IMG/VR virus record: IMGVR_UViG_3300030330_004252
Span: 1 to 28,272 of that record
Source of the DNA: a virus
Lineage: Duplodnaviria > Caudoviricetes
Length of the DNA stretch: 28,272 nucleotides
Direction: 5' to 3' (one strand)
Under the pieces are notes generated by a model that worked only from the letters and a program-made list of their open reading frames with translations, searched no databases and was not told the DNA's origin. Of the stretch, positions 1,819 through 25,637 are shown in pieces. Numbering within the stretch: the stretch's first letter is position 1; the number at the start of each line of letters is the position of its first letter. The translations under genes were made by a program, and so were the position numbers.

Positions 1819-2136
1819 ATGAACGCGAAAGAAATATATAAGTTGTGTTTGTTAATGCAAGAAAGAAAAGGTAGTGACTATCAAAATACTAATTCTTCTG
1901 TAAAACAAATTGACTACTATCCAAATGGCGTAAAAGATATTGTCTGCATGATGCATACAAAACTTACACGTATAAGAAGCTGCTTAGACGCAGATTTTGT
2001 AAATAACGAGTCTATTGAGGACTCAGCGTATGACTTGATAAACTACACTACATTTTTAATAATGTATTTAAATTACAGTTTTGACGGACAAACAAAAGAT
2101 AAGGATATTTTTAACAATGAAATCCCAGGTAGATGA
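1819..2136 (+). CDS. Nucleotide-modification-associated domain 1 (Nmad1/DUF1599-like) protein
   Basis: K.SDY...K..RI....ESIEDS..DLINY motif pattern; first gene of the modification cluster. Confidence 0.7.
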   Translation: MNAKEIYKLCLLMQERKGSDYQNTNSSVKQIDYYPNGVKDIVCMMHTKLTRIRSCLDADFVNNESIEDSAYDLINYTTFLIMYLNYSFDGQTKDKDIFNNEIPGR

Positions 2137-2299
2137 AATAAAAGTCGGAGATAGATTGCGTGTTATAGGCCATACATATTTTGGCCAACACTTAGGCTAT
2201 GACGATATAGGACGTATTGCTTTTCTTGATGAAGAAACGAACGACATTACTTACTACAGACGAGAACAAGTGGAGAAAACTTATGTCAAGTGGTTCTAA
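2117..2299 (+). CDS. Small hypothetical protein (SH3/KOW-like beta pattern)
   Basis: EIKVGDRLRV motif; overlaps both neighbours in the operon; start set to ATG 2117. Confidence 0.55.
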   Translation: MKSQVDEIKVGDRLRVIGHTYFGQHLGYDDIGRIAFLDEETNDITYYRREQVEKTYVKWF

Positions 2300-2684
2300 T
2301 ATCGTTAAAACTTTGTCTATGTTAGATAGTAAGTTTAATTTTTCTACTAGTGTTAAAAACATGACAGACGTGCAGAAAAAAGAATACTTATTATTTAGAA
2401 GTAAATTTATACAAGAAGAAAATGACGAATTGTTGGCTAGCATAATGCTAAACAATAAAGACGGTATAGTTGATGCTTGTATAGACGTAGCTGTAGTTGC
2501 ATTAGGCACTTTGCAAAGTTTTGGCATTGACGTAGAAAAAGCATGGCAAACTGTTGCAGATTCTAATCTACAAAAAGAGTTAGGCACTAATCCTAAACGT
2601 AGTGCCAATCCTAATATGCCTGATTTAGTAAAACCTGTCGGCTGGCGAGAGCCATGTCACAAAGACAATGTCGGAGTTCTGTAA
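2283..2684 (+). CDS. MazG-like all-alpha NTP pyrophosphohydrolase (PRA-PH-like; candidate dCTPase/dUTPase)
   Basis: FIQEENDELL...IVDACID...V.DSN..K...DLVKPVGWREP; ATG 2283 after GGAG. Confidence 0.8.
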   Translation: MSSGSNIVKTLSMLDSKFNFSTSVKNMTDVQKKEYLLFRSKFIQEENDELLASIMLNNKDGIVDACIDVAVVALGTLQSFGIDVEKAWQTVADSNLQKELGTNPKRSANPNMPDLVKPVGWREPCHKDNVGVL

Positions 2685-2686
2685 TT

Positions 2687-3337
2687 ATGAATGTTAAACA
2701 AGTAAGAGAAATATTTGCAAGAAAATATCATAAAACAGAAAACAAAAGCATTCCTACTATCGAGCTGTTTGGCATAAGCTTTCTTGCTGACGAGCCTAGT
2801 ATATTTTCTAAGCCAAATCAAGATTATATACAAGCGGAGATTGACTGGTATGAATCACAGAGTCTTAATGTAAATGACATTGACTTTGTTCCTGTTCCGA
2901 AAGCTTGGCAAGACGTTGCTAACGACAAAGGCTTTGTAAATAGTAACTATGGCAATATTATCTATTCGCCAAATGATAAATTAAATGGCATGTCACAATA
3001 TACATGTGCTCTGACAGAATTAAGTAATAAATATTCACGAAGAGCAACAATGATTTATCAAAGGCCAACTATGCATTTTGACGCCACTGAACAAGGAAAG
3101 AATGATTTTGTATGCACAAATGCTGTTACATATTATATACGAGCTAAGACTCTACGTTGTGTTGTACAAATGCGTAGTAATGACGCTGTTTTAGGCTATA
3201 AAAACGATTATGCCTGGCAGAAACATGTATTAAATAAGCTAGCAAAAGAGTTAGACTTAAAATGTAACAACGAAATTTATTGGCAAGTACAAAACTTGCA
3301 TGTGTATGCAAAACATTTCAAATACTTGGAAATCTAG
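2687..3337 (+). CDS. dCMP hydroxymethylase (T4 gp42-like, thymidylate synthase superfamily)
   Basis: TIELFGISFLADEP, NSNYG, SRRATMIYQRPTM, DFVCTN (catalytic Cys143), MRSNDAVLGYKNDYAWQK (Asp174), LHVY.KHF closely follow T4 gp42 as recalled. Confidence 0.9.
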   Translation: MNVKQVREIFARKYHKTENKSIPTIELFGISFLADEPSIFSKPNQDYIQAEIDWYESQSLNVNDIDFVPVPKAWQDVANDKGFVNSNYGNIIYSPNDKLNGMSQYTCALTELSNKYSRRATMIYQRPTMHFDATEQGKNDFVCTNAVTYYIRAKTLRCVVQMRSNDAVLGYKNDYAWQKHVLNKLAKELDLKCNNEIYWQVQNLHVYAKHFKYLEI

Positions 3338-3767
3338 ATACTTAGATTTAGCAGAACGCATATCTCACTGGAGTAAAGACCCAAGCACAAAAGTAGGCTG
3401 TATTGTTATAGGCAAAGACGGCCAGGTGCTAAGTCAAGGATTTAACGGCTTTCCGCGTAAGTTTAGCGACGATTTAGAGTTATATGTTATGCGAGAAACT
3501 AAGTACAGATTTATTGTGCATGCAGAAATGAATGCTATTTATCATGCAACGCTAAATGGCATAAGTTTAAAAAATAGTGTGTTTTTTATACATGGCTTGC
3601 ATGTATGTCATGAATGTGCAAAGGCATTAGTACAAGTTGGCGCCAAAGGCGTGGTTATGCGGCAAACAAAAGAAACGTCAACAAAGTGGGCAGAGTCATT
3701 TCATTACGCACAAGAAATACTTACGCAAGGAGGAATAGAGTATGAAATCTTTAGTAGTGAATCCTAA
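3306..3767 (+). CDS. dCMP deaminase (zinc-dependent)
   Basis: SKDPSTKVG, GFNGFP, HAEMNAI and CHEC zinc motifs. Start uncertain (3300 or 3306). Confidence 0.9.
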   Translation: MQNISNTWKSRYLDLAERISHWSKDPSTKVGCIVIGKDGQVLSQGFNGFPRKFSDDLELYVMRETKYRFIVHAEMNAIYHATLNGISLKNSVFFIHGLHVCHECAKALVQVGAKGVVMRQTKETSTKWAESFHYAQEILTQGGIEYEIFSSES

Positions 3768-4734
3768 TACAAATATACCGCGTGCACCTAACTCTCACGT
3801 TTTAGGCAGAGCTGCATTGTGGGCTGATTTACTAAAAGCACAGTTAATAAACAATATGTCAAGTCCTGTGAAAATAGAAAAGGAGCTTGCAGAACAATGT
3901 AAAGTTTATATAGACCACGGTGCAAATTTTAATGGCAGTCTAAACTTGTTTGGCGGTCTTACTAAAGACATATATAACAATTGGCAAGAGTTACTAATAA
4001 TGCGAAAGTGCGGACATAAAATATTTAGTTTAGATATAGACATGCCTGACTTTGGCGAAATGTTTAGAAAAAGACTAAATGCAGAAAGTACGTACTATTT
4101 GTTTGACAATAATGTTTGTAACAAAATATCTGACTTATGTCGTAACCACATTAAGCGTGCAGACTATACAAATATTGCATACAAAGGGATAACGTATGGC
4201 GATAGCCATAGCTTAGCATTTAGTAAAAAAGGCGACTATGTTTTTAAAATGGACGGTAGCACTTTGTTTAGTCAATTGCGTAAAGATTGGGTAAATACTT
4301 TTTTTGACAAACAAACGCATGACGTTACGTTTTGTTTTGGCAGCATAGACGTGCGTCATCACATATTGCGTACAGGCACAGAAATAAAAAAGCTTGCAAG
4401 AGACTATATTGACAAAGTTTGTGAGTTCAATTGTACATATGATACTGTTGCTGAAATATGTGCAGTTGTGCCAGTAGAATATGAAGGCAGACGAATACCG
4501 AAAACTGGCTATTATGACGGTAAGCCATTTTCAGGAAGTTTTGAAAGTAGAAAACATATTACAAATGAATTTAATAATTACATACAGCAAGAGTATGAAA
4601 AGTTCGTAAAACCGCCTGGCTACTGGTACACAATGTGTCCGGAATTATATGCAAAAGAATATATGGAAAGAGGCGGCAGTGTGCATATATCGCCAATGCA
4701 TTACAGAAGTAAAGGAGGTTGGGAAAATGCATAA
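3742..4734 (+). CDS. Putative DNA acyltransferase: beta-glucosyltransferase-like N-terminal domain plus SGNH-like C-terminal domain
   Basis: Strong SD. C-half has YGDSHS (Ser155), DGSTL, FGSIDVR and SVH (His315). N-half has MKSLVVN, GSLNLFGG and KIFSLDID, resembling the T4 BGT N-domain as recalled. Function is inferred. Confidence 0.5.
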   Translation: MKSLVVNPNTNIPRAPNSHVLGRAALWADLLKAQLINNMSSPVKIEKELAEQCKVYIDHGANFNGSLNLFGGLTKDIYNNWQELLIMRKCGHKIFSLDIDMPDFGEMFRKRLNAESTYYLFDNNVCNKISDLCRNHIKRADYTNIAYKGITYGDSHSLAFSKKGDYVFKMDGSTLFSQLRKDWVNTFFDKQTHDVTFCFGSIDVRHHILRTGTEIKKLARDYIDKVCEFNCTYDTVAEICAVVPVEYEGRRIPKTGYYDGKPFSGSFESRKHITNEFNNYIQQEYEKFVKPPGYWYTMCPELYAKEYMERGGSVHISPMHYRSKGGWENA

Positions 4735-5575
4735 TATGCATGTAATAGACGGCATAAATAAAGATTTAATAGGCAAAGACATAAACTACTATTTAAAGTT
4801 AGTAGCTGATTGGCAAGACCCATATCCAAAGCCAAAAATTATTACACATGAAGGCGTACGAGTAGTTAGAGAAGATTTAATTACAGGCACAAAAGTGCGT
4901 GGCGCAAGTGCATTAATGAGTAAAGTAAAAGAAAAAAATCTAGTATATGTGCAGCCGCGAGTAGGATTAGCAGGAGTTAGTTTACTTGACGCTGCTAGTA
5001 AATACGGAAAACGCATAATTTTATATATGCCAAGTAGTAAGCGAATAAGTACACATCAAGCATGCTGTATTGAACGTGGCGCGTTTCCTGTATTTAAACG
5101 TATTGCAGCAATGCCAAACTTAAATAAGTATGCAAAAATTTATGCGCAACAAACAAAAGGTTTTTTTATACCGTTAGGCCTACGACACGAGCTTGTAACC
5201 GCAGCTGTTATAAAAACAGCATTATCTATAAGGCCGCCAGAAATCTGCTATACAGCTATTAGTACAGGCGTGCTTTGTCGTGCATTACAAATAGCTTGGC
5301 CAGAAACAGAATTTGTAAGTGTAGCAGTTGCAAGAAATCTTAAGTCAGGCGAGCTAGGCAGGAGTAGTGTAATTAGCGAGCCGCTAGCATTTCATCAAGT
5401 AGAAAAACAGTTGCCACCGTTTCCTACAGTAGATACATATGACGCAAAAGTATGGAAGTACATTCCTAAAAATAGTAAAAAAGATATTATGTTTTGGAAC
5501 GTAGGCAAAGAACCTAAATTAATACATAAACAATTATGGCAATATGTAGATAGTTATAGGGATTGGAATGAATAA
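4727..5575 (+). CDS. PLP-dependent enzyme, fold type II (base-hypermodification-associated decarboxylase-like)
   Basis: VVREDLITGTKVRG (candidate Schiff-base Lys56), FIPLG and AISTGVL phosphate-loop-like motif; ATG 4727 after AAGGAGG. Confidence 0.8.
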   Translation: MHNMHVIDGINKDLIGKDINYYLKLVADWQDPYPKPKIITHEGVRVVREDLITGTKVRGASALMSKVKEKNLVYVQPRVGLAGVSLLDAASKYGKRIILYMPSSKRISTHQACCIERGAFPVFKRIAAMPNLNKYAKIYAQQTKGFFIPLGLRHELVTAAVIKTALSIRPPEICYTAISTGVLCRALQIAWPETEFVSVAVARNLKSGELGRSSVISEPLAFHQVEKQLPPFPTVDTYDAKVWKYIPKNSKKDIMFWNVGKEPKLIHKQLWQYVDSYRDWNE

Positions 5576-6677
5576 AACATATTATGACGAGTTTCTGCGT
5601 TATTACGAGCTTGCAGCATTACAACAAAAAGAATGTAATTTAGGCATAACGCCACACAAAGAGTTAGATATAAAAGACGATTTAATGATGAACGTTGAGC
5701 TATATGACGTTGTAGAAAGAAAGTATGCTGGCTTTAGTCAAATAGTACATGACATTGTCTATCAAAAAAGTGTTTTACATCCATACTACAAAAAAATATC
5801 AATGGGCTTAGCTAGTAAAGAACGTATGCAAATGATAGAAAATTGGCATGGCAGAAATCATACTAAGCTAAATTGGCTATGGCTTTTTCTAATGCATAGA
5901 GTTACCGGCAGCGCTATAAACTATGGCAAAAATCCTAGCGGTTATCATAATACGCTTTTATGGCATTTACATGATTGTCGTGATTTACAAGATTTTATAA
6001 GTTGCATATGGAGTATGCGTACCCCTTTTTATACATCAATAGGCTATCAGTTTCCTGCTTTTCCTAAACACAAAGAATACAAAAGAGGAGGCGATAACTT
6101 TCTTATAAACTACGCACCTCGTTTAGTCTATGACGTACTAGATTGGCTAACACAAAAAAATACAGTTGACTTTCGTGAAATAGGCGAATATATGTTTGAC
6201 TGGAATAAAAAACAAAATTTACGTGCATATAAGTTTCAATACAGTGCTTTTATTGCAGACATTGCAGACTGGATGCCAGAATATATAAATAGAGCAAGTC
6301 CGTTTTATTACGGCACTAACGCAAAAGAATGTATTAGTTATATATCCGGCAGCACAAAAGAAAAAGACTTAGATAAAACTATGCAACGTATTTACGATGA
6401 CACTGGCGCATATCCTTATAACGCAGAAGACGTATGTTGTGATTTTATACGTTGGGTCGAAAACTATATAAATCCTAATAGTGATTATGCGCATTTAGAT
6501 AGAGACAAAGTATGGAGTAGTTGCACAATTACTAATCATGCAAAAGGCAGGCAAAAAGCTATGTTAGAGCACGGACTCGTAAAAACATTTAACGACTTTA
6601 CTACACATCCTAGCGATTACAAAGTTTTAGACAGTATAAACATGAGTGTACAAGATTACAAACAATTAGTAAATTAG
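5568..6677 (+). CDS. Amino-acid:DNA transferase-like protein (aGPT-Pplase family, HhH-glycosylase fold), divergent
   Basis: LYDVVER..AGFS, FQYSAFIADIAD, YGTNAKECI and NAEDVCCDFIRW correspond in order to the family's NVxR, FxAxxxxxDL, GPG and DIEHxLCEFxKY motifs; lies next to the PLP enzyme. Confidence 0.65.
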   Translation: MNKTYYDEFLRYYELAALQQKECNLGITPHKELDIKDDLMMNVELYDVVERKYAGFSQIVHDIVYQKSVLHPYYKKISMGLASKERMQMIENWHGRNHTKLNWLWLFLMHRVTGSAINYGKNPSGYHNTLLWHLHDCRDLQDFISCIWSMRTPFYTSIGYQFPAFPKHKEYKRGGDNFLINYAPRLVYDVLDWLTQKNTVDFREIGEYMFDWNKKQNLRAYKFQYSAFIADIADWMPEYINRASPFYYGTNAKECISYISGSTKEKDLDKTMQRIYDDTGAYPYNAEDVCCDFIRWVENYINPNSDYAHLDRDKVWSSCTITNHAKGRQKAMLEHGLVKTFNDFTTHPSDYKVLDSINMSVQDYKQLVN

Positions 6678-16543: not shown

Positions 16544-16887
16544 TAACTACCTAATATTTTATTAACACTACTCGGATTAATTTTATTATTTATTTTTGCT
16601 TCTATGTCAGATTTAATAGTTGCGACATTATCAGCACCTAAATTAGCTTCTACCCAATTTTGCACAATTTGAGATGTTAAATCTTGCCATGCTATAAAGT
16701 TTGACAAGTCAGTCGTATCTAAATATACTCTGCCTTGCATTGTTGCGTAATAATTATTATTGTTTTCATCTAAATTAATAGTATCTATGCCTTTAACAAT
16801 GTAATGCACTTTATGTACAACATTTTGTAATCCGTTTTTATTTGGATAGACTTCGCAATTTGATACATTCCATATATAGTCAATCAT
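16543..16887 (-). CDS. Fibre-associated protein of unknown function
   Basis: Y.W.V...EVYP...NVVHKVHY...FI.W.DLT...V..WVE..LG pattern typical of small genes after phage fibres; TAATG-coupled. Confidence 0.6.
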   Translation of the reverse strand: MIDYIWNVSNCEVYPNKNGLQNVVHKVHYIVKGIDTINLDENNNNYYATMQGRVYLDTTDLSNFIAWQDLTSQIVQNWVEANLGADNVATIKSDIEAKINNKINPSSVNKILGS

Positions 16888-19800
16888 TATGCAGCTCCTT
16901 TAAGTTCTTGTATTTCGTTTTGTAACACTTGTATTTGTTCTTGTTGTTCTTGTATAGCTTTCACTAAATTAGGAACTAAAGGTGCATAATCTAGCATCCA
17001 TTTTTCTGAATCTGAGCCAACTGTCACACCTCTTGCATATTCTCCTATATCATCAAATGCTTGTTTGTATGCTTGAGCAGAAAAACCACATCCATCAGTC
17101 ACACCTGTTTCTTCTCTTGTATATTTAATTGGCTCTAGTTTTGAAATTAAATTAAGTCCACTTGCTTCACCAGTAATTGTTTTATATCTTTCATCTGATT
17201 CTACTGCCAATGTCATTGCATCACCTGAGTTGTCATAGTCTATTTTTCCTAAACTATCGTTGTTGTTTTTCTTATAAAATCTAATAAATCTGTAAAAAGA
17301 TGCGTCACCAGTATCAGAGTCTAAAGCTAAAACTGCATCATCATTACTACCAGTTTTCTTGACATTTAATGCTTCATTTTCAAATGTGCTACCACTTCCA
17401 ATACGTACTAATTCACTTGTATTTATGACACCATCTGATTCAATAGCAAATCTTAAATTTTGACCATTAGTGTAGAAGTCTATAGAGCCAGTATCTGTTC
17501 TAAATGAAAAGTCATTAGCACTACCGCCAGATTTAAGAGCATTACCACCAGCAATAAAACCATAGTTTGTTGAGCCATCAGTCAAAGATATACCTGTATG
17601 CCCTGTTCCTGCTGTCAACGCTAAAGTATTACCATTCCATGTAGCATTTGCTTCCGCTTCTAGCGTACCAGCTGTGCCGCTGCCAGTTATTAATCTATTA
17701 TCTGCATTATTATTAATTGTTGTTCCTCCGCCGCTCACTACTAAATCAATTGTTCCGTCTGAGTCTTGATATGTAGCTGTAATGTCAGTTTCAGTATTGC
17801 CAGTAAACATAGCGCCAACTGTATCTTGTATAACTTCAGTTAAGTCAATATTAGCTGTACCGTCAAAAGACACTCCGTGTATTGTTCTAGCGGTCTCAAG
17901 AGCTGTAGCTGTTGCTGCGTTACCAGTTGTGTCTTGATTTAATGTAGCAACTACTAAATCTATTGTTCCATCACTATCTTCATACGTTGCACTTATGCCA
18001 GTTTCTGTATTTGAGCTAAACATACCGCCTACAACATCTTGTATTGCTTCTGTTAAATCTATATTTGCTGTTCCATCAAAACTAACGCCTTGTATTGTTC
18101 TGGCAGTCTCTAATGCGGTTGCAGTACCTGCATTTCCTGTAGTATCTTGATTTAATGTTGCTACGACTAAGTCAATAGTCCCATCGGCGTCCTGATATGT
18201 AGCTGTAATACCTGTTTCTGTATTAGAGCTAAACATTGCACCGACAATATCTTGTATTTCTTCCGATGTTTGGTCTGCTGTTGCTCCTGCTTCAATAGCA
18301 TTTAGTTTTGACAATAAAGCATCAGTGAAAGCATTTGTATCACTATTGTTTTCATATGCTGTTTTAATTTCACTATCACTTTGGTCTGCTGTCGCGCTTG
18401 CCTCTATTCCGTTTAACTTAGATAAAAGAGCGTCTGTAAATGCGTTAGTGTCGCTATTAGCTTCATATGCTGTTTTGATTTCCGAGTTACTTTGGTCTGC
18501 TGTTGCATTTGATTCTATGCCGTCAAGTTTATTTTTAAGAGTTGTTGTAAAATCATTTGCAGTTTGTGCAGCTACTGCTAAATCAATAGTTCCATCACTA
18601 TCTTCATATGTAGCTGTAATTCCTGTCTCCGTATTACTAGAGAACATTGCACCTACTGTGTCTTGTATGACTTCAGTTAAATCTATATTTGACGTACCGT
18701 CAAAAGAAACACCGTGAATAGTTCTTGCTGTTTCTAAAGCTGTTGCCGTAGCAGCATTTCCTGTAGTATCTTGGTTAAGTGTTGATACAACTAAGTCGAT
18801 AGTACCGTCACTGTCTTGATATGTAACAACAATATTTGTTTCTGTATTGCTACTAAACATAGCACCTACTGTGTCTTGTATAACTTCTGTCAAGTCTATG
18901 TTTGCAGTTCCGTCAAAGCTTACTCCATGAATAGTACGTGCAGTTTCTAAAGCAGTAGCAGTAGCTGCATTTCCAGAATAACTTGCATTTATACCTAAAT
19001 TAGTTAATGCATTTGTTTTTTGCGTACTAGTTAATGACTGATTACTTACATCAATTCTTAATCTATTTCCTAAGCTTGTATTAATTGTTGTTGCAAAGTT
19101 AGCGTCGTCTCCTATTGCTGCTGCTAATTCATTAAGTGTATCTAAGGCCCCAGGTGCACTGTCAACAAGATTAGATATTTGTGTCGTTACAAATGATTGC
19201 GTAGCATAAGAGTTATTTGTTAAATATGTTTCTACACGTGAATCTGTATAATACAGGTTACTACTTCCTTCACTTACAGCGTCAGTGTCAAAACTAATGT
19301 TTGATGTACCGTCAAAGCTTGTACCGTTTATTGTTCTTGCTGTTTCTAATTTTGTAGCTGTCGCTGCATTTCCTGTAGTATTTTGATTAAGAGTTCCTAC
19401 TACTAAATCTATTGTGCCATCACTATCTTGATATGTCGCTGTTATTCCAGTTTCCGTGTTACTACTAAACATAGCTCCTACTATGTCTTGTATTTCTTCT
19501 GAAGTTTGGTCAGCAGTAGCGCCAGATTCTATTGCGTTAAGTTTGCTAAGAAGCGCATCTGTAAATGCATTAGTATCTGAATTATTCTCATATGCAGTCT
19601 TTATCTCAGAGTCGCTCTGGTCGGCTGTAGCACTATTTTCTATAGCATTAAGTTTACTTAATAATGCATCAGTAAACGCATTTGTGTCTGCGTTATTTTC
19701 ATACGCAGTTTTTATTTCTGAGTCTGTTTGGTCAGCAGTTGCACTAGCTTCTATTGCATTTAATTTAGTGTGGTCTGCGTCAGTAAAAACATTACTATCA

Positions 19801-20576
19801 GTTGCGCTTTCTACTAGTGTTCGTATCTCTGCTGCTGTTTGGTCAGCAGTTGCATTTTCTTCAATAGCGTTTAGTTTTGTTTGTAAAGCATTTGTAAAGT
19901 TATTATCTGTTTGCGAAGCAACAACAAAGTCAAGCGTGCCATCTCCGTCTTCGTAAGTTACAGTGATTCCTGTTTCTGTATTGCTTGACATCATTGCGCC
20001 AACAACGTCTTGTACACGTTCAGATGTATGATAAAGATTACTGCTACCTTCTGTTATTTCGTCTGTATTATCTTTTGTTTGTATTTGCGCAGCAATATAT
20101 GCTTTTACTGATTGTTGCGACGGCGCACGAGTTGCAGAATCTGTAGCAAAACTATCTTCATCAATTATATTATTTGCAATTCTAGCGTCAGCTTTTGTAT
20201 CTGTATAATATTGATTAGTTCCTTCTGATAAGTTTGTAGTTGTAATATCATGTACATTTCCTGCAGCATTTAATAAAACAGCTTTTGTAGCAGGTTGTGT
20301 AATAAATACGTCTTTACTTCCTGCAGAAAAGTTAACTGCACTATTGCTATTACTACTACTAATAACTGTTGTTCTAGCCAATGTTGTTGAGTTTGATAGT
20401 GTACCTAAACCTACTTCAAACTCGCCTGTACCGACTATTGCGTAATAGCATGTATCATTTGTACTTAATACAGAGGAAAAACTACGAAAACCTGTAACAG
20501 CACCAGCTAGACTTATGCTGCCTGTTCCTGTTGTTGTTGTAGTTTCTTTTACTCTATCTCTTACTTTTAATGCCAT
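16887..20576 (-). CDS. Long repeat-rich fibre protein with C-terminal intramolecular chaperone (peptidase S74-like)
   Basis: N-terminal DRVKETTTTTGTG; APGALDTLNELAAAIGDDANFATT fibre motif; C-terminal SDERYK...GFSAQ...LDYAPLVPNLVKAIQEQ. Start set to ATG 20576 (TAATG overlap). Confidence 0.85.
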   Translation of the reverse strand: MALKVRDRVKETTTTTGTGSISLAGAVTGFRSFSSVLSTNDTCYYAIVGTGEFEVGLGTLSNSTTLARTTVISSSNSNSAVNFSAGSKDVFITQPATKAVLLNAAGNVHDITTTNLSEGTNQYYTDTKADARIANNIIDEDSFATDSATRAPSQQSVKAYIAAQIQTKDNTDEITEGSSNLYHTSERVQDVVGAMMSSNTETGITVTYEDGDGTLDFVVASQTDNNFTNALQTKLNAIEENATADQTAAEIRTLVESATDSNVFTDADHTKLNAIEASATADQTDSEIKTAYENNADTNAFTDALLSKLNAIENSATADQSDSEIKTAYENNSDTNAFTDALLSKLNAIESGATADQTSEEIQDIVGAMFSSNTETGITATYQDSDGTIDLVVGTLNQNTTGNAATATKLETARTINGTSFDGTSNISFDTDAVSEGSSNLYYTDSRVETYLTNNSYATQSFVTTQISNLVDSAPGALDTLNELAAAIGDDANFATTINTSLGNRLRIDVSNQSLTSTQKTNALTNLGINASYSGNAATATALETARTIHGVSFDGTANIDLTEVIQDTVGAMFSSNTETNIVVTYQDSDGTIDLVVSTLNQDTTGNAATATALETARTIHGVSFDGTSNIDLTEVIQDTVGAMFSSNTETGITATYEDSDGTIDLAVAAQTANDFTTTLKNKLDGIESNATADQSNSEIKTAYEANSDTNAFTDALLSKLNGIEASATADQSDSEIKTAYENNSDTNAFTDALLSKLNAIEAGATADQTSEEIQDIVGAMFSSNTETGITATYQDADGTIDLVVATLNQDTTGNAGTATALETARTIQGVSFDGTANIDLTEAIQDVVGGMFSSNTETGISATYEDSDGTIDLVVATLNQDTTGNAATATALETARTIHGVSFDGTANIDLTEVIQDTVGAMFTGNTETDITATYQDSDGTIDLVVSGGGTTINNNADNRLITGSGTAGTLEAEANATWNGNTLALTAGTGHTGISLTDGSTNYGFIAGGNALKSGGSANDFSFRTDTGSIDFYTNGQNLRFAIESDGVINTSELVRIGSGSTFENEALNVKKTGSNDDAVLALDSDTGDASFYRFIRFYKKNNNDSLGKIDYDNSGDAMTLAVESDERYKTITGEASGLNLISKLEPIKYTREETGVTDGCGFSAQAYKQAFDDIGEYARGVTVGSDSEKWMLDYAPLVPNLVKAIQEQQEQIQVLQNEIQELKGAA
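17735..20235 (-). repeat. Interleaved protein-level repeats inside the fibre gene
   Basis: KLNAIE..ATADQ..EIKTAYE..DTNAFTDALLS (5 full, 2 partial); QD.VGAMFSSNTETGI..TY.D.DGTIDLVV (7); GNAATATALETARTI.G.SFDGT.NI (5); T...SEG..N.YYT (3). Confidence 0.9.
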
Positions 20577-21007
20577 TAATTTAATGTTCCTTCTCTGTGA
20601 TGATAACAAACAACAAATGTTAATATTGCCGTTGCGATATTTTTATCACCTTCACTATTATAATTTAAAATTTGTGATTCAAGATAACTGTCTTTAGCTA
20701 AATTGTTCAATGTTGTGTCAGAAGCTAGCTTTTCTTTTATATCTTTTAACAATGGCTCTATTTCGCTTGTAAAATTTTCTGCTTTGACATAAACCTCTAT
20801 ATTAAGCTCAAGGTTTTTTTCTACTGTTCTTGGCGGGCTAATTGTAATAACTTCGCTTGTTTCTTCTTGTGTATATACGCACGCACATGGCAAATTGCTT
20901 TCTTCTAAAGTATAAATACGGCTTGCAAATACTTTACTATTCAGGCTTGAAACTTCGTTTAATAATGTTACGACTCTGCTTCTAATGTTTTGTCTTATAT
21001 GTGCCAT
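20576..21007 (-). CDS. Tail terminator-like protein, paralogue 1
   Basis: MAHIRQNIR, VFASRIY...LPCACVY, IEVYVK, NLAKDS, SEG, YHHREG. Confidence 0.75.
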   Translation of the reverse strand: MAHIRQNIRSRVVTLLNEVSSLNSKVFASRIYTLEESNLPCACVYTQEETSEVITISPPRTVEKNLELNIEVYVKAENFTSEIEPLLKDIKEKLASDTTLNNLAKDSYLESQILNYNSEGDKNIATAILTFVVCYHHREGTLN

Positions 21008-22727: not shown

Positions 22728-25637
22728 TTATGTAGTAACTATGTCTTTACATACTGAGAACGCATTCTCATCTCTTATTGCAATGTCCATATCCTGGAAG
22801 AAAGCAAGTCTTGTTGTACCTGCTGAGCTGCCTGTATATGGGTCAACTACTACGTCCACTCCTGAATAATATCCAATGAGTAATTGTGAGAAGTCACCAA
22901 ACAAAAGAGCAGACAGGTTTGAACCTGAGCCTTTTGATAAGTCACTAGGCACTAATGAAGATGACATATAATTGAATCCTAGCATTTGATTGTTAGGTTC
23001 AAGAATAAAGTTACCTTCAACACCGCTTGACTGTTTTGATGTTGTTCTAAGTTTAGCAGTTACTTTTGCGTTTCCTATGAAGTTGACACTACCATCATTT
23101 CTGATTGCATTATCTTCGTCTACTAATTTAACTAAATCAACGACATTTGCATAGGATAAAGCACCACCGTTAGTTCCGATAGATACAACATTATTTGACA
23201 TTAAGCCTATTAGGCCTGTTGGCTCGTTAGAACCTCCGCCTTCAAGTGCAACACCGTCAATCTTTCTTGCGAAAGAATTAATAACGTCGTCTCTTACAAT
23301 CTGCTCAATAGATGGGTCGGATTGTAGCATTAGTTTTCTACTTAAGTCAATATGACAAGCTAGTGTCTTTGGAGACATTGTAACTTGTGCAAAAGTTTGA
23401 CTAGATTCACTAGGAGCTGCATTTTCAGCAACGAATGAAGCATTATTTACAGAAGCAGAAAGCTTAGGTATAGCAACGTCGCCTTTAAGTCCTTGTAAGA
23501 CTCTAGCGCCAGCTTCTCCTACAACTAGCTTTGCATATACAGCTTCTATAAATTCATTTCCTAAATGGTCTGTACCTTTTAAGAAACCGCCAGCATTATT
23601 TGTTCCTACAGTTAAATCCCTTTTGCCAAAATTAATATTTGTTGGCATATAGAATCCTCTTGCAGCTTTTCCAGTTTTGTGCGCAATTTCATCTGACATT
23701 TCTTTTTCAAGACCTGACAATGTGTTGCTTGCACTTTCTCTAATAGCTTTGATAAGAGAATATTCTCTCTTGTCTTCGCTCTTCATGTCGACATCAGACG
23801 GTAAGTCTAATGGCTTATCGGTTGCAATGCTCTCTAGAAGTTTGTTTTTGAATTGAGCTAAATTTAAGCCTTCTCTAATAGCTTCATGTGCTAAATCTCT
23901 TTTATTGTGCTGTGCACCGAGTTCTAACATTTCGCTGTTTTCTCTAGCTAAGTTTTTTCTCATTTCTTCTTTACTAACTTCAGGAGCAATATTTTTATTA
24001 TTTTCCATATTTTTCCTTGTTTTAGATGGGGTTAATTCTATTTTTGTATCTTTAGAACGGGCAAAACCTACTAACTTTGACTGGTCAGCGGGAATGCTTA
24101 CTGCAGATACCTCGAGCGGAGTCCAAGAATTGACTCTGTAGACGGGTACGCCGTCCTCCTCTTCGTCCTCTCTTTTCATACTATTGACTTGGTAGCCAAC
24201 AGATATGTTCTGCCTGATGCCGTCCCTCACATCACGGAATATTTCATCAGCTTGTTCGTTTTTACTGAATCTTACTTTTGCAACTGTTCTTTTATTATCT
24301 TTATCAATACCAAACTCTTCAACAACTCCAATTTGTTTTGTTGCGTCGTGGTCTAACAATAATGGACTTCTGCCTGATTGCATGAACTCCATATCAATTT
24401 CTTCGTCCTCGTGTCCTAGTACTTCTAAACCAAAGTTTCTTTCTACAGGTAATTCACTAGAAACTCCTATACTAACTGTTCTTTTATCTTCGTCAATTTT
24501 ATTTCTATCAAACTCAAATTCTCTTTCATGTTTTTCATTTGCAAAATGTTCTACTGCTTCTCTATTTTCGTTTGTTTGAGCATTTCTAATTGGTTGTATT
24601 TTTGTAAGCGCACTAAATTTATGTCCTGCATAATCGTCGCTTTGTTCTCCGCCTCTATAAACTCTAATTAGTGCTGCTGGGTCGTCTTCTTCGCCATTAA
24701 TTTCAAAATCAGTACCAGGTACTTTTATTGCACCGTCTCTACTAATTCTTGTAATTCTTCCTTTTGCTCTTCCGCCGCCTGCTCTCCAGCTGACAAAGTC
24801 ACCTACTTCTAAAGCGTCTGGCCCTGCTCTTTCTTCTTCTTCTTCTTTATAGCCTTTTTCTTCTTCGTCATAATGATATGGTCTTTTTTCTTCTTCTTCT
24901 TCGTGATAAGGTTTGTGAGGTCTATCTTCCTCCATTTGTCTTGTTAAAATTTTGCCACCCATACCCTTGTGATTTACGCAATAGTAGTAAAGATTAGGTG
25001 TGTCATCATCTACCATTATTTTTATACTTGCACCTTCTTCGCCTGCTTTACCATTAATTTCAACACCTTGCATATATTCTTGACCTTCGTTATGTGAACC
25101 ATCTTCTGTTACTGAGAATCTAAGAGCATGAGTTTTATTTGAGCCATCGCTTATATTAAAAATATATTCATTGCCTGAAAGCATAATTAGACTTGGTGAG
25201 TTTTCACCATCTAAATAAAACTTGTTTCCTTCACCATATTTGTTTTCACCTTCTTTGATAATAACTTCATATTCTATGGTTTCTTGTCTTGTTTCATCGC
25301 TCATGCCTTTTATTCTATCATCATTTTTTAATTTATTAACTATTTTTTTTGACCAACTAAATCCTGCGTCTCCGCCCCACAAAGCCCATGCTATACGTCC
25401 ATTACTAGGATAGCCTTCTTCGCCAGGGCTAAAACCTTCTGCTTGTTTATCAACTTCATGCCTAGAAAAAAAACTGAACATACGTTTTACAGTAGACTCA
25501 CTAAGATTTTGGCCATTAACAATTTGATTTGCTCTTGCTAAACCAATACGCGTACCTCCTCTGCCATGTTCTTTACGCCATGCTAATCCACGTGCTGCTT
25601 CAGCTTTCATGCCTTGATTAGGTTTGTAACTTGCCAT
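22728..25637 (-). CDS. Fused prohead protease-major capsid protein (HK97 fold) with extra N-terminal domains
   Basis: Protease motifs PLLLDHD, NISVGY, WTPLEVSAVSIPAD (~24490-24060); capsid motifs YSLIKAI, GFYMP, A.FVAE, MSPKTL, LLFGDFSQ, VDPY (~24010-22728). Confidence 0.92.
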   Translation of the reverse strand: MASYKPNQGMKAEAARGLAWRKEHGRGGTRIGLARANQIVNGQNLSESTVKRMFSFFSRHEVDKQAEGFSPGEEGYPSNGRIAWALWGGDAGFSWSKKIVNKLKNDDRIKGMSDETRQETIEYEVIIKEGENKYGEGNKFYLDGENSPSLIMLSGNEYIFNISDGSNKTHALRFSVTEDGSHNEGQEYMQGVEINGKAGEEGASIKIMVDDDTPNLYYYCVNHKGMGGKILTRQMEEDRPHKPYHEEEEEKRPYHYDEEEKGYKEEEEERAGPDALEVGDFVSWRAGGGRAKGRITRISRDGAIKVPGTDFEINGEEDDPAALIRVYRGGEQSDDYAGHKFSALTKIQPIRNAQTNENREAVEHFANEKHEREFEFDRNKIDEDKRTVSIGVSSELPVERNFGLEVLGHEDEEIDMEFMQSGRSPLLLDHDATKQIGVVEEFGIDKDNKRTVAKVRFSKNEQADEIFRDVRDGIRQNISVGYQVNSMKREDEEEDGVPVYRVNSWTPLEVSAVSIPADQSKLVGFARSKDTKIELTPSKTRKNMENNKNIAPEVSKEEMRKNLARENSEMLELGAQHNKRDLAHEAIREGLNLAQFKNKLLESIATDKPLDLPSDVDMKSEDKREYSLIKAIRESASNTLSGLEKEMSDEIAHKTGKAARGFYMPTNINFGKRDLTVGTNNAGGFLKGTDHLGNEFIEAVYAKLVVGEAGARVLQGLKGDVAIPKLSASVNNASFVAENAAPSESSQTFAQVTMSPKTLACHIDLSRKLMLQSDPSIEQIVRDDVINSFARKIDGVALEGGGSNEPTGLIGLMSNNVVSIGTNGGALSYANVVDLVKLVDEDNAIRNDGSVNFIGNAKVTAKLRTTSKQSSGVEGNFILEPNNQMLGFNYMSSSLVPSDLSKGSGSNLSALLFGDFSQLLIGYYSGVDVVVDPYTGSSAGTTRLAFFQDMDIAIRDENAFSVCKDIVTT

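Follow-up and report, generated by a model that had tools for sequence, protein, structure and literature searches.

Phage T4 beta-glucosyltransferase (BGT) flips its target base. In the pathways of phages M6 and ViI, the hydroxymethyl group is phosphorylated by a kinase, after which a helix-hairpin-helix (HhH) enzyme with an essential Cys and an essential Glu swaps the phosphate for a free amino acid, and decarboxylation by a PLP enzyme follows (PMC8989533 and PMC13458397). The amino acid:DNA transferase requires a leaving group (PMC8989533), and the E/T of its motif are metal ligands (PMC13458397). Adenine in DNA is aminoacylated by Mom, a GNAT (PMC13219725). The locus described here resembles the thymidine hypermodification loci of M6, ViI and PaMx11 (5-hmdU kinase, amino acid:DNA transferase and PLP decarboxylase; PMC8989533) in carrying a hydroxymethyl-pyrimidine synthase, an HhH protein with an ExxxC motif and a PLP enzyme related to M6 gp52 in one operon. 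It differs from them in three respects, i.e. the base is cytosine (as judged from D185 of the synthase), no P-loop kinase is seen near the gene, its place being taken by a hybrid SGNH protein, and the HhH partner falls outside the Pfam families ADDT and HMUDK_hel. Among the main texts searched there was no description of the hybrid family, or of an SGNH enzyme acting on phage hydroxymethylcytosine (hmC), although the 2013 paper by Iyer and Aravind, which reportedly defined the aGPT-Pplases, may mention the family.

The window, i.e. the whole 28,272-nucleotide stretch of viral DNA that was analysed, contains the following features around the hybrid gene:

1819..2136, plus strand: Nucleotide-modification-associated domain 1-like (Nmad1-like) protein (PF07659, E 0.004, below the curated cut-off)
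2217..2684, plus strand: MazG-like nucleotide pyrophosphohydrolase (PF01503, E 2e-10; phrog_671)
2654..3337, plus strand: dCMP hydroxymethylase, orthologue of T4 gp42 (E 6.7e-56 to PDB 1b49)
3300..3767, plus strand: dCMP deaminase (PF00383, E 3e-16; phrog_174)
3742..4734, plus strand: hybrid BGT-N/SGNH protein of 330 aa (ORF)
3742..4161, plus strand: N-domain of the hybrid, approximately residues 1-140, with predicted BGT homology over 1-103 (hhalign, conservation); conserved residues S18, H19, N68-L-F70-G-G, D98 and R111 (conservation)
4177..4731, plus strand: SGNH domain of the hybrid, residues 146-330 (fold comparison, Foldseek, conservation); S155 (codon 4204-4206), G172, G200-S-I-D203-x-R-H-H207, a basic insert at 246-270, E309 and H315 (codon 4684-4686)
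4727..5575, plus strand: PLP-dependent enzyme related to phage M6 gp52, a DNA-acting decarboxylase (hhalign probability 97.2, E 3.1e-11, 215 columns)
5568..6677, plus strand: HhH partner of aGPT-Pplase type (model, fold matches, motif)

The upstream genes point to a supply of hmC. PMC13326640 gives residue signatures that separate hm-dCMP, hm-dUMP and 5-hydroxy-dCMP synthases (for hm-dCMP, Asp at ThyA positions 177 and 169, an acidic residue at 143, and the catalytic Cys), and because of these rules the product of 2654..3337 is predicted to be hm-dCMP and not hm-dUMP or 5-hydroxy-dCMP. D151, C154, D177 and D185 of the enzyme fit the hm-dCMP signature and not that of the 5-hydroxy-dCMP synthases, an assignment that was ruled out by the retention of D177. 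All 57 hydroxymethylase copies longer than 150 aa, the window's included, have Asp at ThyA 169 and 177 (one 101-aa fragment was dropped). The MazG-like pyrophosphohydrolase likely removes dCTP, its presumed substrate.

We surveyed 80 viral loci carrying the hybrid gene and counted gene context in the 38 with enough flanking sequence, omitting the 42 short-flanked ones. The dCMP hydroxymethylase was present in 34/38, which backs the link to hmC-DNA made in the original prediction; the deaminase was found in 33, the HhH partner in 37, the PLP enzyme in 31 and the Nmad1-like gene in 21, and the one locus lacking the HhH partner has an HMUDK_hel protein. Fifty of the 80 loci are T4-like (RecA, DnaB or PolB nearby), and in these the module lies between gene 42 and uvsX, which is the b-gt position in T4, i.e. 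the hybrid gene occupies the same genomic slot beside gene 42 as BGT. A further 12/80 adjoin portal, capsid, terminase or RecE-type genes, as in the window, with the structural labels assigned by eye. Positions 8245-28272 (minus strand) of the window appear by eye to be the structural module of a small tailed phage, with portal-, capsid-, tail- and lysozyme-like genes, and the window therefore holds a T4-type hmC module in a small phage that is not T4-like. Within this region, a 969-aa ORF (22728-25637, minus strand) seems by eye to join several small domains with prohead protease-like and capsid-like parts, and a 1240-aa protein with long internal repeats (16887-20609, minus strand) is probably a tail fibre. 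The ORFs scanned in the window, which is probably an incomplete contig, included no recognisable DNA polymerase or dNMP kinase.

The hybrid gene itself is preceded by an AAGGAGG ribosome-binding site and overlaps its two neighbours by 26 and 8 bases. A word-indexed search returned 101 relatives, and 713 were found at E<=0.001 (314 at E<=1e-30) among 50%-identity representatives; 589 of 599 matching viral stretches were confirmed, and approximately 1400 are estimated to exist in all. Of the 43 named phage records with the gene, 38 belong to Aeromonas phages, including 44RR2.8t, 31 and 25. The family is covered by PHROG 13881 and 17781, both annotated as of unknown function; searches of PDB sequences by single sequence and by profile gave no real match to the protein, and NCBIfam gave none. 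An Atlas cluster of 972-aa giant-virus proteins with glycosyltransferase domains aligns with the hybrid over residues 14-330 (TM 0.56), and from this alignment the family may reach into the Nucleocytoviricota.

The original prediction described the protein as a fusion of a BGT acceptor-side domain with an SGNH domain replacing the UDP-glucose domain. All of the motifs that it quoted were found at 1-12, 64-72 (N68, F70), 93-100, 153-156 (S155), 171-172, 200-203 and 313-315, the three BGT motifs that it compared with them are located in the T4 gene at 1, 66 and 93, and profile and fold comparisons uphold the two-domain anatomy. We compared a profile of residues 1-145 (178 sequences) with a BGT profile built from the T4 gene and 21 relatives (n=22). 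In this comparison residues 1-103 aligned on BGT 1-105 with an hhalign probability of 89.7 and a score of 42.3, which, like all of the BGT figures given here, are pairwise values for a target named in advance. The score was reached by 0/100 block shuffles (maximum 37.9) and by 0/15 natural control families (maximum 26.4), the reversed profile scored 14.0 and the remaining three domain pairings scored at most 16.7. A deeper N-domain profile gave a probability of 96.4 (E 1.4e-9, score 57.4, 94 columns, residues 1-102) against shuffle maxima of 17.6 and 37.1 (30 shuffles each), and omitting the window protein from it left the probability at 97.2-97.6. Residues 1-63 alone, i.e. without the N-L-F-G-G motif, still gave 71.8, and residues 73-145 alone gave 0.8. 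The signal required profiles on both sides, as the whole alignment matched the single T4 BGT sequence only weakly (probability 5.5) and Pfam PF09198 touched 1/96 family members (E 0.1). An Atlas structure search with residues 1-145 listed B12-binding and receiver domains and other alpha/beta folds, with BGT not among them. BGT was also absent among the matches listed for the whole model, which do not exclude it because the lists were filled by SGNH proteins. On the profile evidence, residues 1-103 are probably homologous to the acceptor-side domain of BGT.

Conservation was read from an alignment of 132 sequences, in which the window protein was joined by the 128 of 143 new representatives that matched over their full length and by three proteins of named phages. 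The aligned region includes the N-x-F/Y-G-G loop and the Asp that follows the strand at 93-98 in BGT. H19 and N68 are each kept in 130/132 and behave as invariant-like acceptor-side residues, and the F70 position is aromatic (Phe or Tyr) in 114/132. In BGT we take D100 to be the catalytic base and F72 to have the base-flipping role; D100 is invariant in 22/22 BGTs. The hybrid's own D100 had been proposed as its catalytic base, an assignment that we reject, as the profile alignments place BGT D100 on D98 and position 100 is Asp in only 31/132 relatives. D98 is kept in 96% of 95 near relatives but is acidic in only 96/132 distant ones, so that, unlike in BGT, this counterpart is kept in only part of the family. 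The hybrid differs from BGT in two further ways: i) E22, present in 22/22 BGTs, has no acidic counterpart and the hybrid family has S18-H19 there, and ii) the UDP-glucose-binding Rossmann C-domain is absent (probability 0.6 between the two C-domains) and an SGNH domain is present instead.

The AlphaFold model of the hybrid, built from 96 sequences, has a mean pLDDT of 92.7 and a pTM of 0.89. In a fold search, residues 140-330 of the model matched 2hsj (Z 12.1, rmsd 3.5, 169 aligned), and Foldseek gave an SGNH probability of 1.00, with PDB and BFVD searches in agreement; comparison of residues 146-330 with SGNH proteins, which the original prediction had called for, thus indicates a modelled SGNH fold. 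The protein resembles SGNH/GDSL enzymes (2hsj, 4rsh, sialate O-acetylesterase, Ape1 4k3u, PatB 8tlb and MsAcT 2q0s) in fold, with Z of 10.5-12.1, and in having a G-D-S-H block I, a block II Gly (G172, kept in 107/132), a G-N/S-x-D block III and a C-terminal His. S155, H156, D203, R205, H207, R270 and H315 are invariant in 132/132. Position 201 in block III is Ser in the window protein and Asn in 88 and Ser in 41 of the 132. The acid of the block V DxxH motif is absent, position 312 not being acidic, and E309 (130/132), six residues ahead of H315, is a candidate substitute. The missing acid and Ser201 therefore weaken the case for a canonical triad, but leave the fold assignment unaffected. The domain also differs from SGNH/GDSL enzymes in its basic Gly-rich insert, its fusion to a BGT-like domain and its location in a DNA-modification operon, and the Pfam families SGNH, GDSL and GDSL_2 touch 9, 7 and 3 of 96 members, with all scores under the cut-off. 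The hybrid is a real chimera that is not a member of the BGT family and is an atypical member of the SGNH group.

The titles of the 50 fold matches listed are mostly those of GDSL/SGNH esterases, lipases and acylhydrolases, with Ape1, PatB, MsAcT and the Oskar OSK domain also present. These titles, the missing DxxH acid, Ser201 and the partial conservation of D98 and F70 all count against a role in priming, and the titles are what an esterase that strips an acyl group from the modified base or from a pathway intermediate (i.e. unmasking or editing) has in its favour. However, fold rank cannot separate a hydrolase from a transferase and no acyltransferase that would make the substrate was recognised in the module, and we regard this role as very unlikely. 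Somewhat better placed, but still improbable, is that S155 and H315 take part in an activation that involves no acyl group but the transfer of a phosphoryl, sulfo or similar group from a nucleotide donor, or that the domain chiefly serves to bind nucleic acids or nucleotides. Added to the SGNH core are the invariant or near-invariant R205, H207, R250 and R270 and a G256/G265 insert, which, with the absent DxxH acid, agree with such a role, as does the match to the Oskar OSK domain (Z 10.5), which binds RNA non-enzymatically. Amino acid:DNA transferases (AADTs) require a metal and use phosphate as leaving group (PMC8989533 and PMC13458397) and the HhH partner retains E287-D288, which also favours this reading. 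Against it, S155 and H315 are each kept in 132/132 and position 201 is Asn in 88/132, as would be the case in a working acyl-enzyme site, and we know of no SGNH phosphotransferase.

Downstream, the longest ORF of the PLP enzyme begins at 4649, with 4727, which is preceded by a ribosome-binding site, as the likely start. Its K82 (numbered from 4649) aligns on gp52 K36, and its match to ViI gp226 is weak (probability 7). In L090:4384-6702 (Microcystis phage Mae-JY30) and L091:2326-4764 (Erythrobacter phage ZS04), close relatives of the PLP enzyme either follow two ParB/sulfiredoxin genes or are fused in a protein annotated as a DNA methyltransferase, and carry annotations as methylases; this is possibly another base-modification route.

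The HhH partner has an all-helical model (pLDDT 89.9), for which HhH DNA glycosylases are the top 7 of 12 matches listed, the best Z of 7.7 being under the tool's caution level. Its BFVD matches include a protein of 53% identity, labelled amino acid:DNA transferase in UniProt, followed by ADDT and Pplase1 proteins (TM 0.41-0.42). Its motif E287-D288-x-x-C291 is invariant in 63 sequences, with spacing as in M6 gp51 and M6 gp55. The motif does not prove transferase activity, because HMUDK_hel has it too, and M6 gp55, also an ExxxC protein, was dispensable (PMC8989533). None of 39 members of the partner family matched PF18724 or PF18723 at E<=0.5, and in hhalign the partner profile had no significant match to AADT (PF18724, probability 0.6) or HMUDK_hel (both <= 3.3). 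The low Z, the insignificant profile matches and the presence of the motif in gp55 count against the priming role. In 21/80 loci, e.g. L037:6009-6983, there is also a second helical protein that is paralogous to the partner (E-D-x-x-C motif; hhalign probability 71); it nearly always accompanies the PLP enzyme and is absent from the window.

Profiles of BGT, AADT and HMUDK_hel had no match across the 80 loci or in the window's first 9 kb. No P-loop kinase was found by motif in those 9 kb, and any Walker A motif lay within 4 kb in only 2/80 loci; a kinase could lie elsewhere, because the contig is probably incomplete. From its domains and its place between the hydroxymethylcytosine synthase and relatives of base-tailoring enzymes, the hybrid likely acylates hmC in phage DNA. 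Since the HhH and PLP parts are in place, neither a kinase motif nor a glycosyltransferase was found in the vicinity, and the hybrid stays while the genes supplying the nucleophile change, acylation by the hybrid is the likeliest source of the leaving group. We therefore tentatively propose, with a probability of about 0.45, that the hybrid acts as a DNA O-acyltransferase and thereby primes hmC for another, predicted substitution.

In this scheme the gp42 orthologue, assigned by homology, would produce hm-dCMP, which would then be incorporated into DNA. The N-domain would bind the DNA and present the hmC hydroxyl as its BGT homologue does, presumably by flipping the base. S155, aided by H315, would accept an acyl group, probably acetyl, and pass it to this hydroxyl, a chemistry suggested by the fold and by the invariance of both residues; the acyl step would stand in for the 5-hmdU kinase. 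C291 of the HhH partner, as its motif and fold class suggest, would then attack C6, the ester would depart and a free small molecule would join the methylene, in parallel with the amino acid:DNA transferases that act on phosphate in phages M6 and ViI. In the window the nucleophile would be an amino acid with a free alpha-amine, subsequently decarboxylated by the PLP enzyme, in keeping with the homology of the latter to gp52.

Other phages combine the hybrid gene with different partners. The window's partner and the helical domain of 44RR2.8t ORF233c and P0190, which scores as HMUDK_hel, belong to separate helical clades, each fused to the hybrid in some proteins (to the HhH partner in 5/143 representatives, to the HMUDK_hel domain in ORF233c and P0190). 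P0190 is a three-domain fusion of FkbM, HMUDK_hel and the hybrid enzyme. Placing the C-terminal domain of 44RR2.8t in the family of the window's partner was rejected, as the link ran via an alternative-frame ORF. In 16 loci fetched with the second-clade domain (L176-L191) the hybrid was present in 14, myo-inositol-1-phosphate synthase in all 16, an FkbM methyltransferase in 4 and the PLP enzyme in none; a hydroxymethylase lay within 5 kb in only 3/16, which counts against the priming reading. A small protein with an HAD-like motif by eye and no Pfam match occurs in 14/16 of these loci (L176-L191; L001:4408-8388). In 44RR2.8t a sodium:solute symporter lies immediately upstream of the hybrid gene in place of inositol-1-phosphate synthase, genes 42 and 56 are present, and the 35 kb read contain no glucosyltransferase annotation. 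The second clade may thus append inositol, made or imported, to DNA. As regards the literature on inositol in phage hmC hypermodification, PMC13326640 does not bear on inositol on DNA.

The hybrid gene also occurs in Aeromonas phage 25 and Tenacibaculum phage PTm1, in which no helical partner was detected by several searches, one of them run without a positive control; this, too, counts against priming. In phage 25 (L002:3776-7047) a UDP-galactopyranose mutase (E 5e-54), a 358-aa ORF and a stand-alone hybrid gene, two genes after the mutase, were found. The 358-aa ORF resembles a glycosyltransferase by eye, but neither Pfam nor BGT matched, and it has been given no assignment.

This arrangement favours the reading of the hybrid as a terminal acyl- or aminoacyltransferase, esterifying hmC or its appended sugar, polyol or amine to leave an ester in the mature DNA. 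The original prediction had allowed the enzyme to act either first, as an activator, or last; gene context favours the former, and the latter, less favoured, is retained as the main rival. SGNH O-acetyltransferases target sugar hydroxyls and PatB 8tlb is among the matches (Z 10.5), a UDP-sugar dehydrogenase is present in 9/38 well-flanked loci, and the giant-virus proteins aligning with the hybrid carry glycosyltransferase domains. A terminal role would, however, leave the activation of hmC for the Cys-bearing partner unexplained, with neither kinase nor glycosyltransferase found nearby. In addition, an amino acid esterified through its carboxyl group would not be expected to be decarboxylatable by a gp52-type enzyme, and a tailoring enzyme is expected to vary with the appended group, yet the hybrid is the constant gene. 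We therefore consider terminal acylation unlikely, and prefer the priming reading.

If the priming reading is true, these phages would make a hypermodified cytosine without a sugar-nucleotide or a kinase, by means of an SGNH enzyme that acts on DNA. A broader proposal, possible but somewhat doubtful, is that cytosine hypermodification is universally primed by acylation in place of phosphorylation: an SGNH acyl-enzyme would act on the flipped base, and interchangeable HhH transferases would then add amines derived from amino acids (in this phage) or, in the 44RR2.8t-type clade, myo-inositol and its methyl ether, so that abundant aquatic phages would contain several undescribed bases. The hybrid family is large (the 314 clusters at E<=1e-30 and approximately 1400 estimated viral stretches noted above) and spans phage types, and for the Aeromonas phages 44RR2.8t, 31 and 25, which are in culture, it offers a testable candidate for hmC decoration. 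A new means of labelling 5hmC could come from an acyltransferase specific for hmC, or from such an enzyme paired with a transferase.
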